From assembly GCA_031362565.1 (NCBI GenBank), contig JANLSU010000065.1, forward strand, positions 1-60,734: a stretch of 60,734 nucleotides of DNA. The letters run 5' to 3'. Shown here one piece after another: positions 1 to 60,734 of this stretch (the first letter of the stretch is position 1; each line of letters opens with the position of its first letter). The position numbers and the translations under genes were made by a program. The stretch comes from a bacterium (GTDB lineage: Bacteria > Krumholzibacteriota > Krumholzibacteriia > G020349025). The notes under the pieces were generated by a model that worked only from the letters and a program-made list of their open reading frames with translations, was not told where the DNA came from and did not search any database.

Positions 1-140
1 CACGCATCGACGAACTCCTGCCCGACAACTGGCAGCAGGCTCGCGCTGAAGCCTCCACCACCAACTGACCCACCCGTTTGCACCCGGTCATATTGCGCCG
101 CGACCTCGACCACGCTACCCTGGGATTGTCGGACGGATAC
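1..140 (+). mobile_element. IS66-family insertion sequence, right end (truncated by window edge)
   Basis: Nt 3-68 encode RIDELLPDNWQQARAEASTTN*, matching the IS66 TnpC C-terminal 'xIDELLPxNW' motif. The element ends in ...GTCGGACGGATAC at 140 (reverse complement GTATCCGTCC, an IS66-type terminus), where the interrupted minus-strand gene resumes. Confidence 0.85.
3..68 (+). CDS. tnpC: IS66 transposase TnpC, C-terminal fragment
   Basis: Manual translation RIDELLPDNW..., TGA stop at 66-68. Confidence 0.8.
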   Translation, partial: RIDELLPDNWQQARAEASTTN

Positions 141-847
141 ATTAAAGAGGGATCCATATCGTTGAAGGATCGGTTCAGGACTCGACTTCGCGCGCCCAGG
201 AACCACGACAGAAGGGACAGCTCCTCTTCCAGGATGCTGATGTGTCGTGCCAGTGGACCTAGAACTGCTTGAACCTGGGAAGCCAAGGCCTTATCGCCGG
301 ACATAGCTTCTTCGCTGATTTGATTCGTGAGCGCAACCGTCTTAACCCAATCTGGCCCAGTTTGGAACGCAGTTGTGAGCTCGGGAACTTTGCTCTTTGC
401 AGAGACGCCGATCCTCGTACTCACAGGGATCGGTCCTGGTCGCCTTGCCGCTGACATTCTCAGGATTGCCAGACGCGCATCCTCTATCAGCACGGGCTTT
501 GCCTTTGGGCTACGTTGTCCGCCGGCTGAAGTAGTAAGAACCGCGAGGGCGGCCGCTACGTTGCCATCGTCGAACGAAGCCGACAGTAGGCAAGACGCAA
601 GGACAGCTACTTCCCGTTCGTTGTCGACCATGGAGAAGCTCGGGTCATCAGCCGCAAACGGCTGACGAAACCACTCGGAGCCACCGGGCAGAGGTAAACC
701 AAAATAAAGACGAGTAACATCGACTGCCCGGAGGGGCTTCATCTCCTGCCTGAGACGATCGAACGGCGACTGCCGGCGAGAAATGATGTCAGGTCCGGGA
801 TTAAGGCCCGCGGATCGATACTCATCAGCGAAGTTGAATCCAGCCAC
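141..847 (-). pseudogene. GASH-like (GTPase-associated system all-helical) protein, interrupted by IS66
   Basis: Absent from the ORF track because no stop occurs before the window edge. GGAGGAGG RBS then GTG at 847. Reads MAGFNFADEYRSAGLNPGPDIISRRQ...WFRQPFAADDPSFSMVDNEREVAVLAS...LEEELSLLSWFLGARSRVLNRSF, then runs into the IS terminus at 140. Confidence 0.72.
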
Positions 848-874
848 GATAACAGTCCTCCTCCTGGCCCGCGC

Positions 875-2155
875 TCACGACCCCTGACTAGCCGCGGACA
901 CTTCCTCGGCTAGCTTTGTTATGAGTCCGCGATCCCTAGCACGCACAAAGACCCGACGAAAGCGCTCGAAGTCAGGCTGGTTGACGTCTTCGTCTTCCAG
1001 AAGTCCCAGCTTGCCGGCAATGGCAGACTTCTGGCTGAGCGTCAGTTTGAAGAAGCGAATACTGAGTTCCCTCAGTGGGTTCATTGGATCCCCCGATGTC
1101 TGCTCGCTGTCATTGGAAGTACTCGCGTTTACCGCTTCCACCGGGGGAGCTTGAACACGCGAAGGCGCCTCCCATGGGTCGAGCTTGATCTCCGATCTGA
1201 ACACCGGCTCATTTGTTCGGTCGATTTTCGCAACAAACCTGCCTGGCGACTCCTGCCATACGCGTAGGTGAGCGCCAATTAGGAGGCGTCGATCCAGTGG
1301 AGTCCCCTGCACTGAAACCTCGATGAGGTTATATCCTGGCTCCCACCCCATTTCCGTACGATCGGGGTGCGTCGCCGCGGCCGCTATTCGGACCCAATCC
1401 CGCGCGAGCGTGATCCGTAGCCGGTGTTCATGTCCAAACAAATGAAGGCGAGCGACATCGTTTAGAGCGTCCTCCAACGCACGGCCGCGCCGCAACCAGT
1501 GCAGTGGATGGTGGCACATCACTAGATGCTCCACGCCAGCAATGCGCCCAAGTTGCGTATATGCTGGGTCGACAAAGAGTGTTTCGGGCCTATCCGCCGC
1601 GCTCGAAACGAATGCAGAGTTTAGACCAGACAAGCGAAGTGTCGATCTGTCATTTAGTGTTAGATCACGGCATGCGATCGTGCGCTGTGGCGGAAGTAGA
1701 TCACAAAAGAATTGCCCTGCGAACAAGTTGTACGCATTCAAGGGCTCGTAGAGCAGTCTGGCCGTCTCTTCGTCGGTCAGCAGACCACGCAGTTTAGCGT
1801 CGAGCGTGAGATCAGCAGACGACTTGATGTCCTGATGCAGCGCCTGAATGATGTTACGGCCGGCGATGTCCCTCGCGACGTCGTGATTGCCGGGACAGAC
1901 GAAGATGTCGGAGAGAGTCGCCTCGCATCTTTGGCAGAGGGCCTCTAGCCATTTCTCAGCGAATTTGTATTCGTCTGCGTGCCCGCTGTACGCTACGTCG
2001 CCTGACAGCAGGATTGCTTGAACAGGGCTGCCTAGCTGCGCACACATTGCTTCTACGTCGCGGAGTATTTCTTCGCGCTGACGCTGGTCAGGGTCAAGAG
2101 TCGTATTGACCATATCACGGCGAAAGTGGATGTCCGACAGATGAAGCAAGAGCAT
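875..2155 (-). CDS. Calcineurin-like metallophosphoesterase with C-terminal GAAD-like helical adaptor domain
   Basis: Motifs HLSDIH, SGD, PGNHD, CHHP, GHEH. A low-complexity linker precedes a ~65-aa tail (RELSIRFFKLTLSQKSAIAGKLGLLEDED...FVRARDRG). GGAG RBS before ATG at 2155. Confidence 0.85.
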   Translation of the reverse strand: MLLLHLSDIHFRRDMVNTTLDPDQRQREEILRDVEAMCAQLGSPVQAILLSGDVAYSGHADEYKFAEKWLEALCQRCEATLSDIFVCPGNHDVARDIAGRNIIQALHQDIKSSADLTLDAKLRGLLTDEETARLLYEPLNAYNLFAGQFFCDLLPPQRTIACRDLTLNDRSTLRLSGLNSAFVSSAADRPETLFVDPAYTQLGRIAGVEHLVMCHHPLHWLRRGRALEDALNDVARLHLFGHEHRLRITLARDWVRIAAAATHPDRTEMGWEPGYNLIEVSVQGTPLDRRLLIGAHLRVWQESPGRFVAKIDRTNEPVFRSEIKLDPWEAPSRVQAPPVEAVNASTSNDSEQTSGDPMNPLRELSIRFFKLTLSQKSAIAGKLGLLEDEDVNQPDFERFRRVFVRARDRGLITKLAEEVSAASQGS

Positions 2156-2610
2156 TCTTGATACTCCACCGTGTGCCCAGGATCCGAGTGCCGGCGATCG
2201 CACTGCCACATCGTCGCTCGTCCGCGGGCGACCATCACCCACGGAGATCGACTGAAGTTACTAGAGCACCCCCCGACTGTCGATAGGGCGTAACCGCTTG
2301 TCTGGGTTGAAAATCCGTTGGATCGGGAAACGAGGAGCAGCCAGGTAGAAGGAGTGATTCGAGACGGCAGCGTTCCCGCAGGCGTTCCCGCATTGCTCGG
2401 GGAACCCGCTGACTCACGCTGAAACCAGTCCTAAAGAACTCTCTTCGCTCGTCGTTGCAGTCCATTGCCGGTCTGCGGTTTCCGTTGATCTGACGTGACT
2501 TGCTGGGCCGAGGCCGTTTGCCGCAAATCGGCCTGAATCGATTTAGGAAACCGCCGCTCATTGGCCAGTCTGACATTCGACGGCGGGACGATCGGCGCAT
2601 CCCGCGTTGT

Positions 2611-4143
2611 TCACTCCGCCGGACCCCGCGCCAGCAGGCTACCACCGGCCGCCTCGGTGCGGACATTGATTCCCAGCCGGCTGGCGGTCGCGGGATCGCC
2701 CCAAAGCTCGCCGGCCGGGCCATCGTATGCGACCCGCCCTGCGTCGAGCACCAGAATCCGGTCACAGGTCGCAGCGACGAAGTCCGCGTCGTGTGACGCG
2801 ACGCAGGTCGTGACCCCACGAGCGTGCAATCGCGCGCACGCGTCCACCAGCCGTTCGACACCCTCGGGATCGAGGCCCAGTGTCGGCTCGTCGAGAAGCA
2901 GGAGCGGGCGTTGTTGCGCCAGCGCACCTGCGAGCGCGACGCGGCGCATTTCGCCACCGCTCAAACGAAATGGTGTCCGTGACGCGAACTCTTGCGGGTC
3001 GAGCCCGACATCGGCCAAGGCTTCAAGGACACGCCGGTCGATTTCGGCGGCCGGAACACCCGACTCGCGCAAGCCATACGCCACATCCTCACGGACGGTG
3101 GCGCCGAAAAGCTGCCGCTCCGCGAACTGGGTGACGAGACTCGGGACGGCCCGCATCGCGCCGGCCACACCGGCAGGCCATTCGACGACGCCACGATGTG
3201 GCTGCAGCAACCCACAGAGTGCCGCGAAGAGTGTCGACTTGCCGGCGCCCGATGCGCCCATCAGGCCAACACGCTCTCCAGCCATGCATTCGAACGACAC
3301 CCCGACGAGCGCTGGCGCCGTCTTGCGCCCGAACATCATCCAGCGGGCTTCCAGATCACGGACGCGCACGAGTGGTGCATCCAACTTTGCCGGCGGTTTG
3401 GGTGGCGTTGAATGGGTCGGGTGCGATACACCACGCGCACCAACATGCAGCGCGGCTTTGGCCGGCAGCGATTTCAATGCCTCCGCCGGCGGCCCGTCGG
3501 CCACCACACAGCCGTCGTGGAGAACCAGAACGCGCGAATGCGCGCGCGCCTGCTCGGCGCTGGTCATCACGTAAATGACGATCGTTTCGGGCGGCAGCGC
3601 CGCAATCGCGGCCGCGAGACTTTCCCGGCCGCGCCGGTCCAGCAACGCCGCGGTTTCGTCGAGCACCAGCACGCGCGGCTGCATCACCCAAACGCTCGCG
3701 AGCGCCAAGCGTGCCTTCTCGCCGCCCGACATCTCATGCGGTGATGCGTGCCGCTGCGACTCAAGTCCGAACCGCCCGAGCGCGTCGTCGACGAGCGGCC
3801 GCATTGTCGTGGTCGGCACATTCAGGTTCTCGAGCCCAAAGGCGATCTCGCGATCCGCCGTCGTGCTCACGAACTGATCATCGGGATCTTGGAAGAGAAG
3901 GCCGACGTCACGGCGGACAGCGAAACGGGCGGCATCGTCCTGCGTGTCGTGCCCGTCCACCGTCACCCGCCCGCGGTCCGGGAGCTCGGTGCCGTTCAAC
4001 AAGCGGACAAGCGTCGTCTTACCACTGCCGTTGCCGCCCAGCAACGCGACGCGCTCGCCGGTTTCGATTCGCAACGACACGCCGTCCAGCACCGGGCGCG
4101 GGCGCCCGGAACGTTCGACCACGACGTCATGCAGTTCGATCAC
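2611..4143 (-). CDS. ECF-type (CbiO/EcfA-like) ABC ATP-binding protein with two fused ATPase domains
   Basis: Walker A GGNGSGKTT and GASGAGKST; FQDPDDQFV and TQFAERQLF Q-loops; MSGGE and LSGGE signatures. Start uncertain (4143 or 4170). Confidence 0.85.
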   Translation of the reverse strand: MIELHDVVVERSGRPRPVLDGVSLRIETGERVALLGGNGSGKTTLVRLLNGTELPDRGRVTVDGHDTQDDAARFAVRRDVGLLFQDPDDQFVSTTADREIAFGLENLNVPTTTMRPLVDDALGRFGLESQRHASPHEMSGGEKARLALASVWVMQPRVLVLDETAALLDRRGRESLAAAIAALPPETIVIYVMTSAEQARAHSRVLVLHDGCVVADGPPAEALKSLPAKAALHVGARGVSHPTHSTPPKPPAKLDAPLVRVRDLEARWMMFGRKTAPALVGVSFECMAGERVGLMGASGAGKSTLFAALCGLLQPHRGVVEWPAGVAGAMRAVPSLVTQFAERQLFGATVREDVAYGLRESGVPAAEIDRRVLEALADVGLDPQEFASRTPFRLSGGEMRRVALAGALAQQRPLLLLDEPTLGLDPEGVERLVDACARLHARGVTTCVASHDADFVAATCDRILVLDAGRVAYDGPAGELWGDPATASRLGINVRTEAAGGSLLARGPAE

Positions 4144-4201
4144 GACGACTCCGTGAGTCTTTGGGCCCATCGCGCCGCCGGACGTGTGGCATCGGTTTCG
4201 T

Positions 4202-4834
4202 TTAAAGTCTTGGTACCTGCCGCCGGTGAGATTGGCGTCGGCGCGGCAACACCACATCGCGGGTCTCCACCGCAGAATCCTCGAACATCTCGACGAGCTG
4301 CATAAACAGAGACCGAGTCGCTAGCGCATCCCCCAGCGCGGTGTGGCGTGCTGAACTCTCCACCGGAATTCGGAAGTGTTTGAAAGCCCCATCGGAGGTT
4401 AGCGCTTCGAGTGGGACCTTCCCTCCCAACCAGGCGCAAAACAGCATGGAATACGTATCCACGGCTCGGTGGGACAGACCCGCAATGTCCGTTCTACCGG
4501 CAAGGGCGGCAAGCTTCCGCAGAAACGACAGATCGAATCCTACGTTGTGTCCAACGAGGGTCATGGGCTGCCCGTGCCCAGCACCACGGACGTATTCCTC
4601 GATCCTCGTCGCAGCTTCGACAGGCGCCACCGCTTCACGCTCCCATGAAGAAGCAAATCGGGCAAGGTTCTCGCGAGCAAACGCGGTCCACACCGGGGCG
4701 GGCGGGCGAATATGAACAAGGAGTGGCGCAAGATCAGCGGAAAAGGGGGCAAGCGCAATCGCAACCGGGTCATGCAGCGCCGGATTCGTCCCGGTCGTTT
4801 CGATGTCGACGACCAACAATCTATCGGTCTGCAT
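4202..4834 (-). CDS. DEDDh 3'-5' exonuclease (DnaQ/RNase T-like)
   Basis: ExoI VVDIETTG, ExoII GHNVGFD, ExoIII HTALGD. Confidence 0.88.
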   Translation of the reverse strand: MQTDRLLVVDIETTGTNPALHDPVAIALAPFSADLAPLLVHIRPPAPVWTAFARENLARFASSWEREAVAPVEAATRIEEYVRGAGHGQPMTLVGHNVGFDLSFLRKLAALAGRTDIAGLSHRAVDTYSMLFCAWLGGKVPLEALTSDGAFKHFRIPVESSARHTALGDALATRSLFMQLVEMFEDSAVETRDVVLPRRRQSHRRQVPRL

Positions 4835-5603
4835 TCTCACGCGTTAGGCCCATCTCATGCGCCCGGATGAGCGCGTACGTTTCCGTTACGATTGTATCAC
4901 CAAAGAGGGTCCAGTTGTCGGCGTAGCTCCTGGCGAACTGTCGCGCCGAAATCAAGAACCCGAATGGCGCAGCAAGGAGAAGAATCCAGTTTACCTGTAG
5001 AGACCGATCGAAGCACCAAGTCACAAGGGCCCCAACCAAGGCAAGTGAAGCAACCCAGCAAGCTCCGGCGGATGCAATCGCAATCGATCGATGAAGCGTG
5101 TATTTGCTCTGATACGTCGCCGCTAAAGATGTTCGGCGATTCTGAACCAGAAGGCACCTGGCGACGCGAAAGAATTCATCCCATGGCGGCGATGCCATGC
5201 CCGGAACAATTTGTGGAGCAGCGACAGCGAATAGCCGCGACAGTTCCTGCCGGTATTGAGCCGTGGGCCTGTGCAGACGAAAGCGGAGAATATCGGTCAT
5301 CGGGAGCGGCGACTTGCCCCCCGTGCACTGGCGAGAGACCCCATTCAGAACTTGGCCCAGGAAATAGCAAGCGACTCCAAGCAGCACCAGCGCTGCGATA
5401 CGCGTCGATGAGGACAAACTCGCGTCGATACTCACGATCTCCGACAGTCTCAATTCAGGCAACAACCCCAAAGACCACTTCAGGGCCAGCGGACCAAGCG
5501 CAAGCCACATCGACCCAACGAAGACAGCGCACAGAAATCCAGGCAGAAGTACCCCGAACAACTCGTACGTCAGTTGCGTCAACTTTCCGATAAACGTATC
5601 CAC
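4821..5603 (-). CDS. Hypothetical membrane protein (about 4 hydrophobic segments)
   Basis: GGGAGG RBS before GTG at 5603. Hydrophobic stretches such as YELFGVLLPGFLCAVFV, LVLLGVACYFLGQVL and WILLLAAPFGFLI. Its stop overlaps the exonuclease start. Confidence 0.7.
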   Translation of the reverse strand: MDTFIGKLTQLTYELFGVLLPGFLCAVFVGSMWLALGPLALKWSLGLLPELRLSEIVSIDASLSSSTRIAALVLLGVACYFLGQVLNGVSRQCTGGKSPLPMTDILRFRLHRPTAQYRQELSRLFAVAAPQIVPGMASPPWDEFFRVARCLLVQNRRTSLAATYQSKYTLHRSIAIASAGACWVASLALVGALVTWCFDRSLQVNWILLLAAPFGFLISARQFARSYADNWTLFGDTIVTETYALIRAHEMGLTRENADR

Positions 5604-5802
5604 GTAACCTCCCGACGCAGTGCGAAGCAACGCGCGTGTCAGGATCGTGGAATACGGATACGTCGGTCTATCTCGCAAGAACCGTCGATTGCGCTGGGAG
5701 TTAGAGCGCCCCCATTTCTCGCCAGAACCGCATCTAAAGGCCGGCCCCACGCCGCAGCTCGGCAAGCGTCATCTTAGACGACATCTTCCAGGAACTCGGT
5801 TG

Positions 5803-26877: not shown

Positions 26878-28670
26878 GCCTGGCTCCTTTGCAGGGCGCG
26901 TTTCACCGCGGTACGTACGGCCGGCTCGGCGTCGTCAACGGCTTTTTGTAGTGCGGCCTGCGCCTCGGGGGCCGTGATCGACCCGAGGGCACGCGCCGCG
27001 CACGCGCGCACGTCGGGCGTCTCACGATGCCGGAGCACCCGGCGCCCGTTCAGCAACCGGTGCAGAAGCGGCACGGATTGCACGCCACCGGCGCGTGCAT
27101 ACGCATCCACGAGCGCTAGTTTGTCCCCGAGCGCGACGCTGCGAAATTCGCGCGCCGTGAGGATGGCCTCCAGGGCCGGCAACGCCGGCGCATGCTGCCA
27201 CGTACCGACACCCCAGGCGGCAGCCAAACGAATGTCGCGGTTCTCATGTTCGAGCAACGGGACGAGCAAATCCATCGCAGCGGGCACGCCGAAGGCGACC
27301 AGTGTTTGGATTGCGGCGCGTTGAATTTCGAGCTCGGGATGTTTCAGAAGCCGCCCGACCACCGGAACGAGGTCGATGCGTCCGAGCGGAACAGCCAGAG
27401 CGAGTGCCGCGGTCAGCAGTTGCGGATCCGAGGCCACCAGGGTCGTTGCCAGCACGCCCGGGTGGGCCACCGCGACGCGCTGTGCGGCGTCGCGAATCAC
27501 CTCGCGCAATTCGGCGTGTGCACACACGGTACTCGCGCCAAGCAGCGTCCCGAAGGCGTCGCCACCCGCCGGACGCAAGAGCAATTCGAGATCTTCGACC
27601 CGGCACGGATTCTCGGACGCGAAAAGACTTTGCCAGAATTCAGGGCGTGCCGTCAGTGCGACTGTCTCGCGCACGATCCGCTCGACCTCCACCTGCTGGA
27701 GCGCATCGACGAACCGGCCTTCCTCGATGACTTGACTCAGTTCTCGCAGCGTATGCACCGCGACGCGGGTTTCGCCGGCGGCGAGTTGGCGCGGCAGCAG
27801 TTGAGCCACGACTTGCAATGTCTCGGCGCGGATCGCTTCGTCCGGATCTTCGAGAAGGTCGAGAAGCGCATTCACGACGTCGATTTCCACATCGCGCTGC
27901 AACTCGGCCTCGATCGCGCGTCCAAGAGCCTCGAGGTCTTCCGGCCCGAGAGACACCGGGCGGGCGAGCTTGGCGTGCACCGACTCGGGCAGCCCGACGG
28001 GGTCTTGCCACGGCGCCGGAGCCGCCGCGGCAGCCGCCGGGGACGGCGGGCCTGCTGCGCTGTGCGGCGGCGTTTCGCTCGCATCTGCCGGTAGAGTTTC
28101 ATTGTCCGGCGCCGCGCCGCTCGTGCCGCTCAGCATAGTGCTGGAAGCATCGCCCGGCGCACTTCCGGTGGCGGGTTCGTGCGGCGCATCCTCGCCTTCT
28201 GCGAGCTCGACGTATTGATAGCGAAATGCCGTGAAGTCCTGCGCCCATAAAAGCGTCAAAAGATCTTCTTCGGTGTCGTGGGCGTTTTGCGCTGCCAGAA
28301 GCAACTGCACGAAGGCATCGATGTCGCGCTCTTCGAAGCCCGGTAGAAATGTAATGACCCGCACGCTGTCCTTGTAGAACAAGAACGGCAGGGAGCCGCT
28401 GCGGCGCTCCGCTTCGTGCACTGTCATTTGGTCGAAGACCAAACGGTCTTCGCTCACGGCGACCGTGAGTTCGGGGATGTACTCCCAGAGAGAGCGAAAG
28501 CAATCGCGGAGCGTGGAGAGGCGTCCACCGACTTGCGCATTTCCGGGACCGTACATCTCGTAGGCGCGCAGAAGTTGTTGCAGGGCGTTGAATACAGCCG
28601 CGACGCGCTCGCCGATCGCGGATTTTTCCGCGGTTTCGGCGCCACCAGTCGAGGCGTGGGTCGCAGGCAT
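26874..28670 (-). CDS. HEAT-repeat protein
   Basis: C-terminal HEAT repeats (IRLAAAWGVG, VRACAARALG); ATGA overlap with the HD-GYP gene. Confidence 0.85.
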   Translation of the reverse strand: MPATHASTGGAETAEKSAIGERVAAVFNALQQLLRAYEMYGPGNAQVGGRLSTLRDCFRSLWEYIPELTVAVSEDRLVFDQMTVHEAERRSGSLPFLFYKDSVRVITFLPGFEERDIDAFVQLLLAAQNAHDTEEDLLTLLWAQDFTAFRYQYVELAEGEDAPHEPATGSAPGDASSTMLSGTSGAAPDNETLPADASETPPHSAAGPPSPAAAAAAPAPWQDPVGLPESVHAKLARPVSLGPEDLEALGRAIEAELQRDVEIDVVNALLDLLEDPDEAIRAETLQVVAQLLPRQLAAGETRVAVHTLRELSQVIEEGRFVDALQQVEVERIVRETVALTARPEFWQSLFASENPCRVEDLELLLRPAGGDAFGTLLGASTVCAHAELREVIRDAAQRVAVAHPGVLATTLVASDPQLLTAALALAVPLGRIDLVPVVGRLLKHPELEIQRAAIQTLVAFGVPAAMDLLVPLLEHENRDIRLAAAWGVGTWQHAPALPALEAILTAREFRSVALGDKLALVDAYARAGGVQSVPLLHRLLNGRRVLRHRETPDVRACAARALGSITAPEAQAALQKAVDDAEPAVRTAVKRALQRSQA

Positions 28671-60589: not shown

Positions 60590-60734
60590 CCGTGACTGGT
60601 TCCGCTTCCGAGTCGGAGCACGTCTTCGGAGGTGTGGGGCCCCCGCCCCCGGGTTTAAGGGCGCGCCCCGCTCAAAATTGGCGCGAAGCGCGCGGCGCCG
60701 CCCGGGGTGTGGGTGTGGGGGGGGGGGCCACCCC

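Follow-up and report, generated by a model that had tools for sequence, protein, structure and literature searches.

Probable remnant of a GAP1-N1 conflict operon

We analyzed the start of a contig from a bacterial metagenome bin and conclude, with a probability of roughly 0.85, that positions 141–2155 hold the promoter-proximal remnant of an acquired five-gene GAP1-N1 GTPase-centric conflict operon, which was inactivated and whose GASH gene was cut by an IS66 element. The window, i.e. the whole stretch of DNA that was analyzed, covers contig C90 from its first base to position 60,734; its own assembly (G000) is a 5.4-Mb metagenome bin of 133 contigs with an estimated completeness of 100%. Both genes of the remnant lie on the minus strand: an intact gene for a predicted effector, a calcineurin-type metallophosphoesterase with a GAAD tail (875–2155), is followed by a 5′ fragment of the GASH gene (141–847), which runs into the right end of the insertion sequence (IS) at 1–140. 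The operon was probably of the anti-phage type.

The family assignments are based on profile searches, in which Pfam matches were judged against the curated cut-offs (27 bits for GASH, 23.6 for GAAD, 21.5 for Metallophos and 27 for DO-GTPase1 and DO-GTPase2). An earlier reading of this DNA, made from its letters without database searches (the sequence-only reading), had called GASH, GAAD and Metallophos families here, and all three calls were borne out by scores above these thresholds: 58.2 bits for GASH (PF19994, with the best stretch at profile positions 3–111 of 398), 63.5 bits for GAAD (PF19976, effector residues 361–420) and 41.5 bits for Metallophos (PF00149, effector residues 1–245). 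The GAAD match corresponds to positions 896–1075 on the minus strand and thus falls within the helical tail (875–1084) that had been described as GAAD-like. In profile searches across G000, GASH and GAAD (66.7 bits) each gave a single match, in both cases at this locus.

The effector open reading frame (ORF; P0001) extends from ATG 2155 to TGA 877–875 and comprises 426 codons. Its start (MLLLHLSDIHF) is shared by 16/16 aligned relatives, which speaks for this ATG and not for the upstream GTG at 2242. All five metallophosphoesterase motifs are kept (D8-x-H10, G52-D53, G89-N90-H91-D92, H215-H216 and G241-H242-x-H244), and these motifs (DxH, GD, GNHD/E, H and GHxH) are invariant in 17/17 aligned sequences. 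In the same 17-sequence alignment, the effector retains every invariant column and deviates once (A34V) among the 154 columns in which at most one sequence departs from the consensus; the 16 relatives show 0–10 deviations there. Among 8000 candidates scored, we found 510 effector homologues at E ≤ 0.001; both domains, Metallophos and GAAD, are present on 120/120 of the homologues listed, the closest of which is 64% identical.

Intact operons in relatives of the remnant

A locus scan with one genome per species yielded 45 loci, nine of them with an effector at least 50% identical. As judged by tblastn with the Afipia proteins, 7/9 of these loci hold all five genes in order (L013, L015, L016, L017, L019, L020 and L021); the remaining two are cut by contig ends, L014 inside DO-GTPase2 and L018 inside the effector gene, and consequently 7/7 readable loci are complete. 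The gene order is phosphoesterase-GAAD, GASH, DO-GTPase2, DO-GTPase1 and GAP1-N1, with the last three directly downstream of GASH, which supports the proposal of the sequence-only reading that GASH and GAAD belong to systems with DO-GTPase1 and DO-GTPase2. In Afipia massiliensis DSM 17498 (L021) and Rhodoferax ferrireducens (L016), the Pfam scores were 141 and 187 bits for GASH, 157 and 166 bits for DO-GTPase2, 257 and 245 bits for DO-GTPase1, and 105.3 and 95.8 bits for GAP1-N1, respectively. The Afipia DO-GTPase2 contains four cysteines in its first 33 residues.

Effector identity to P0001 is 61% in A. massiliensis, 57% in R. ferrireducens, 55% in Devosia pacifica KCTC 32437 (L017) and 50% in Camelimonas lactis DSM 22958 (L019). 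The effector and GASH genes of these four loci are arranged as in the window, in the same order and closely spaced. Unlike in the window, however, GASH residues 236–360, DO-GTPase2, DO-GTPase1 and a GAP1 of 649–679 aa follow.

Besides that, individual loci show features of their own. C. lactis has an extra 273-aa ORF between GASH and DO-GTPase2 (L019:3374–4195) in an otherwise colinear operon. The upstream neighbours are a tyrosine integrase in Rhodoferax (L016:7762–9045) and a DUF4172-Fic protein in Afipia (L021:8781–9893), which fits carriage on mobile or defence islands. In a locus from a metagenome-assembled genome (L015:5610–6680), the GASH open frame has 234 aa, yet tblastn homology reaches residue 352 of 360; this short frame is probably due to a frameshift or sequencing error, and its length would then be near that of the window fragment by coincidence.

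The GASH fragment and its junction with IS66

The GASH frame opens at GTG 847–845 on the minus strand, 27 nt past the effector TGA, and continues to window base 1. Between position 847 and the IS junction at 140/141 it comprises 235 whole codons of about 360. The 27-nt spacer (848–874, minus strand) contains the ribosome-binding string AGGAGGAGGA (856–865), which lies 8 nt upstream of the GTG. The sequence-only reading had recognized this gene of about 235 codons with its start, spacing and ribosome-binding site, and had quoted two GASH-like motifs in it; we could retrace all of this, with the motifs present as FAADDPSFSMVDNEREVAVLA and EEELSLLSWFLGARSRVLNRSF.

Several lines of evidence place the break. 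tblastn with the intact GASH proteins of L021 and L016 aligned residues 1–235 and 4–235 of 360, respectively, and the match ended at window position 143; over these N-terminal 235 residues the fragment is 44–47% identical to the two proteins compared. In a 31-sequence alignment, the window GASH agrees with the family as far as about residue 235, beyond which its residues are encoded by the IS, and the read-through frame amounts to a 299-aa chimera (235 GASH plus 64 IS-encoded residues). GASH homology ends at the IS terminus, and the gene was therefore cut exactly at the end of the IS66 element. A protein database search gave no near-identical intact GASH protein among 42 matches, the best being 62% identical. 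The effector is given in that database as a product of this window; the GASH piece is absent there, in line with the earlier remark that this gene was missing from the ORF track, and it returned nothing in NCBIfam or PADLOC profile scans.

Window positions 1–140 are 100% identical to C89:2209–2348 of the same assembly, the right end of an IS66-family element. A complete, identical copy runs from contig C113 into C89 and spans 2501 bp. Its terminal repeats match at 22 of 40 positions, it is flanked by an 8-bp target duplication (GCATCAAT) and it encodes TnpB_IS66 (110.6 bits) and DDE_Tnp_IS66 (253.7 bits). With both genes, the terminal repeats and the 8-bp duplication, this copy shows nothing unusual for the IS66 family. 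Of the window copy, the right 140 nt are visible (1–140, plus strand), including the last 21 DDE transposase codons and the stop at 3–68, and the right inverted repeat ends in ...GGACGGATAC at position 140. The IS66 disruption postulated earlier could thus be substantiated.

In addition, we used Logan contigs of two sequencing runs: X1, the probable source run of the assembly and hence not independent of it, and X2, from another sample in the study that yielded X1. In X1, the right end of the IS has at least four different continuations, of which the bin holds two, and the IS66 contig has a depth of 51 compared to about 13 for the adjoining chromosome (Logan depths are sums over organisms and not copy numbers). 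There are more IS66 copies in the community than the bin's two right flanks. None of the Logan contigs listed for X1 and X2 covers about 175–1914 within window positions 1–2600, yet X1 contains all sampled words, and this hole carries no weight for the interpretation of the locus.

The fate of the distal genes

Neither the GTPases nor GAP1 were found in the assembly. The best matches to DO-GTPase1 and DO-GTPase2 (PF19975 and PF19993) in G000 reached 16.9 and 16.1 bits, covering the P-loop only (cut-off 27), and GAP1-N1 (PF20012) had no match in G000 at E ≤ 1. Likewise, tblastn of G000 with the ten proteins of the L021 and L016 operons returned the effector and GASH residues 1–235 only; the GASH 3′ part, DO-GTPase2, DO-GTPase1 and GAP1 gave no tblastn match in G000 with eight query proteins (four DO-GTPase, two GAP1). 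BLAST with the whole IS and with the contig end bearing its left terminus revealed no second IS left junction on any G000 contig, the left end being present on C113 alone, and a 51-base stretch of this left end had no exact match in the metagenome contig collection scanned. The expectation that the GTPase genes lie beyond the IS therefore lacks support: none were found in the 5.4-Mb assembly, and the left flank of this IS copy is on no contig. With respect to membership in the GAP1-N1 systems, we found GASH, a GAAD-coupled effector and orthology to complete operons, and did not find the DO-GTPase pair and GAP1. We consequently classify the locus as a remnant and not as a system, since two defining components were searched for and not found.

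How these genes were separated from the remnant can be explained in two ways, which we regard as about equally likely. In one tentative scenario, an IS-mediated deletion or rearrangement removed the distal 4.3 kb from the genome and left an orphan effector with a GASH stump. This would account for the four missing parts in the assembly, and it fits an island in flux, with a second junction inside the effector gene in two runs and a resolvase cut by an IS21-type element at the other island edge (see below). The GASH piece itself points in the same direction: compared to the closest relative (62% identical), it carries W214S, W220R and P227S, radical changes at strongly conserved positions in the most conserved GASH motif, immediately ahead of the junction. 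Constraint may thus have been relaxed on GASH, but not on the effector, although the hint is weak. However, the piece as a whole shows only two deviations in 26 near-invariant columns (joint highest of the 31 sequences), and absence from the bin is weak evidence, because the bin misses IS-flanking DNA.

The other scenario, proposed by the sequence-only reading, contained in the remnant interpretation and held equally tentatively, is a simple insertion, with the GASH 3′ part, DO-GTPase2, DO-GTPase1 and GAP1 located beyond the IS left end on unbinned or unassembled DNA. Plain transposition would leave a junction exactly at the IS terminus, as observed here. The 140 nt of the IS do not differ from the other copy, and the effector is undecayed, which suggests that the disruption is recent; a young event of this kind is what a simple insertion would look like. 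Moreover, the bin is without other IS flanks that the run holds, and GTPase and GAP1 genes follow GASH in all seven readable relative loci. On the other side, the four missing parts remain untraced in the 5.4-Mb assembly, whose completeness is estimated at 100%. Binning did recover small island contigs of 3.1 and 3.7 kb and might therefore have recovered a piece of 4–5 kb too, and the second IS left junction is found neither on a contig of the bin nor, as far as the IS left end is concerned, in the metagenome collection scanned.

Returning to the interpretation as an inactivated operon remnant, some observations weigh against it. The far flank of the IS is not assembled, so an otherwise complete operon could lie on an unbinned contig, and the source run has at least four right-hand IS flanks versus two in the bin, which thus misses DNA next to the IS. 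Dating the insertion has to rely on 140 nt of this IS copy. Furthermore, an undecayed effector gene would also fit continued use, and the mechanism outlined next is inferred from domain architecture.

In the intact system, following the predictions of Kaur et al. (2020), two paralogous TRAFAC GTPases would form an NTP-dependent switch, to which GAP1 and GASH would link the sensing of an invader. The GAAD tail would dock the dimetal phosphoesterase on GAP1, and the enzyme would be freed or activated only upon infection. Nucleotides or nucleic acids might be the targets of the activated phosphoesterase, which would hydrolyse their phosphodiester bonds. With its switch and docking partner either missing or uncoupled, the remnant could not operate as such a system.

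The orphan effector and a second junction in its gene

To characterize the predicted effector, an AlphaFold2 model was built from the 17-row alignment (mean pLDDT 81, pTM 0.82). It consists of a phosphoesterase core, a beta-rich extension at about residues 274–324, a disordered linker (334–354) and a five-helix GAAD bundle (359–424). The top Foldseek match (E 1.7e-16, query TM 0.59) was YydB of B. subtilis, taken from an integrative model that also contains YydD (PDB 9a6c_B); it is far stronger than the match to any crystallised phosphodiesterase. A literature search on YydB and YydD, at the level of result listings, returned no function for YydB. At lower ranks, GpdQ and the cyclic-nucleotide phosphodiesterase Rv0805 followed at about 1e-8 and Mre11-type nucleases at about 3e-5, and a sequence profile search matched GpdQ only (1.1e-7, N-terminal 92 residues). 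Because of this fold ranking and the GpdQ profile match, we favour a phosphodiesterase that would act on small phosphodiesters or nucleotides, an activity also predicted by Kaur et al. (2020, PMC7159879). Housekeeping identities were considered as well: CpdA or SbcD was rejected on account of the GAAD tail, the conserved operon and the score of the sbcD model (23.6 bits, cut-off 77.65 bits).

The phosphoesterase-GAAD protein might still be active as a stand-alone effector or toxin, by itself or together with the GASH fragment or the 299-aa chimera, but we consider this quite improbable. The remnant retains an intact effector gene with its start as well as an intact GASH start and ribosome-binding site, and similar phosphoesterase domains are found at the N-terminus of single-protein defence candidates (PDC-S60, DS8). 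However, every one of the 120 homologues listed keeps the GAAD tail. The four partners are kept in all readable loci, which argues that the effector depends on them, and no locus with only two genes was seen.

The Logan contigs of X1 and X2 reveal a further junction within the effector gene. After position 1950, directly behind a CTAGCC site (1945–1950), a path departs from the window sequence, and this co-existing variant of the source community continues to the right with the terminus of a different repeated mobile element. Its depth in X1 is 11.5, compared to 13.1 for the window path. In G000 the first 21 letters of the variant path have five occurrences, one exact and the others with a single mismatch each; four of the five are close to contig ends, and CTAGCC precedes all of them, as in the window. 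A 90%-similar copy on C131 adjoins a gene whose product combines an rve core with a Mu-transposase C-terminal domain. The variant effector would be without residues 1–68, including three catalytic motif residues, and without its promoter side. A scan of 1–2700 yielded one promoter-like site, located within the effector gene (0.6 expected), and no terminators. One speculative and rather unlikely explanation could be that the two independent mobile-element junctions within 2 kb reflect stepwise silencing, first of a costly or autotoxic system and then of its orphan phosphoesterase, which would turn into a burden after the uncoupling of the GTPase switch. If true, the locus would preserve, in nature, the trace of selection against a conflict-system effector that had lost its regulation.

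That the IS–GASH junction or its placement in G000 is an assembly or binning artefact is very improbable: although the junction is situated where the contig starts, with a graph overlap of 140 nt, and the composition is unlike that of the genome, an independent assembly of the same reads contains a 31-letter word that spans 111–141, the break falls exactly on the IS terminus, and the rest of the contig carries ABC genes that match 4/4 same-family genomes at 55–63% identity.

Foreign origin and island context

Next to the effector start, a spacer of 455 bp (2156–2610) forms the edge of the accessory island and is followed by a conserved chromosomal ABC-ATPase gene (2611–4257, minus strand); ABC genes are kept in all four same-family genomes searched. 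Both remnant genes have a GC content of 56.6% versus 65.3% for the genome, and GC climbs from 0.55–0.58 to 0.66–0.68 at about 2400–2800. GC3 is 57–61%; the 2023 long open frames used as a rough background, some of which are antisense in this GC-rich genome, have 74%. The sequence-only reading had pointed to atypical codons with many TTA, CTA and AGA. This holds with regard to the low GC and GC3 and the effector gene, in which CTA accounts for 12/427 codons (stop included), i.e. 28 versus 1.8 per 1000 or 15-fold; in the GASH piece, however, the counts are small (TTA 2, CTA 2 and AGA 1 of 235 codons). We further screened 40 relatives, six of the same family and 34 of the same class, and found an effector homologue in none of them at E ≤ 1e-20 (37/41 genomes including G000 are of good quality).

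In 3/3 same-family genomes examined (G006 was left out), the ABC-ATPase genes are located 0.3–3.1 kb from a PRTase block. In G000, contig C122 carries the orthologues of this block as far as position 27,246, with the first gene (PRTase) about 80% identical. They are followed by 4.6 kb of accessory DNA (C122:27250–31834) with two unidentified ORFs, an HNH-domain ORF and a resolvase (serine recombinase) gene cut by an IS21-type element. The IS21-type element shows IstB and repeated ATTCCG...GATCA motifs, and C122 and C124 (loci L077 and L066) represent this other edge of the variable spot. C122 overlaps C124 by 141 bases, and the far end of C124 joins nothing in the bin. No shared word of at least 11 bases, and hence no att-like repeat, was found between window positions 2151–2700 and C122:27201–27800, and C122:26000–31834 contained no tRNA, tmRNA or Rfam family. 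Since the ABC genes neighbour the PRTase block in relatives, and the block is on C122 in G000, composition and gene order together indicate that the remnant is horizontally acquired and is one edge of a mobile-element-riddled island at a variable spot.

A second low-GC patch is located further into the contig at 4202–5765 (0.57–0.59 versus 0.65). It contains a DEDDh/RNase_T-type exonuclease gene (4202–4840, minus strand) and an overlapping 314-aa ORF (4821–5765, minus strand) with no Pfam match, and it may be another accessory module.

Significance of the locus

GAP1-N1 systems are widespread, and a working example would be worth testing; this locus is not one, because the IS cuts it and the assembly lacks the switch genes. 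Its modest value lies elsewhere. It shows that the GASH and GAAD families can be recognized by reading sequence alone, it points to intact operons in cultured relatives, and it documents the decay by mobile elements of such a system in a lineage in which it was found nowhere else (0/40 relatives). The earlier statement that these systems are little characterised experimentally holds within the literature searched: by system names and Pfam accessions we found no experimental test of a GAP1-N1 system, with subscription journals outside the coverage, and apart from Kaur et al. the relevant literature retrieved consisted of a paper on alignment methods and a 2026 preprint with a single passing mention of DO-GTPases.

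Comparison with known systems

The effector can be compared with characterised enzymes and with single-protein defence candidates. It shares the dimetal core fold with Rv0805 (class III cyclic-nucleotide phosphodiesterase, 2hy1) and GpdQ (glycerophosphodiesterase, 2dxl), with a TM of 0.54–0.65 on the target. These enzymes are 15–20% identical to the effector and differ from it in being without the beta-rich extension (about 274–324), the linker and the GAAD tail. Its N-terminal domain is also similar to those of two NCBIfam families, DS8_antiphage (103.5 bits, cut-off 790) and DS9_1 (63.6 bits, cut-off 420), and it matches PDC-S60, a PADLOC candidate single-protein anti-phage family, at E 3e-21. 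All three matches cover only the first 235–250 of about 1000 profile positions. An assignment of the effector to the DS8 or DS9_1 anti-phage proteins was rejected, as its whole-protein scores are far under the equivalog cut-offs.

The closest known counterpart of the locus is the group of GAP1-N1 systems. According to Kaur, Burroughs, Iyer and Aravind (eLife 2020, PMC7159879), these systems combine GAP1 and GASH with a pair of DO-GTPase genes, one of which encodes an N-terminal zinc ribbon, and a calcineurin-superfamily phosphoesterase is their commonest effector. GAAD, a small helical domain, is predicted there to link effector and GAP1; across the systems the effector would be coupled through GAAD, through fusion to GAP1 or through EAD1. 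Pfam has models for every component, whereas PADLOC v2 and NCBIfam have no model matching the Afipia GASH, DO-GTPase1, DO-GTPase2 or GAP1. The window differs from the published systems in that GASH is cut at codon 235 and the GTPases and GAP1 were not found in its assembly. Its host also lies outside the proteobacterial hosts of the nearest homologues: the best homologues are 55–64% identical, and the named ones among those listed are proteobacterial. In common with the systems of Kaur et al., the window has the effector type, the GAAD adaptor and GASH, and its relatives add the DO-GTPases and GAP1-N1. Altogether, the architecture is one that was defined computationally in 2020 and named as frequent by Kaur et al., and the locus is a new but broken example of it.

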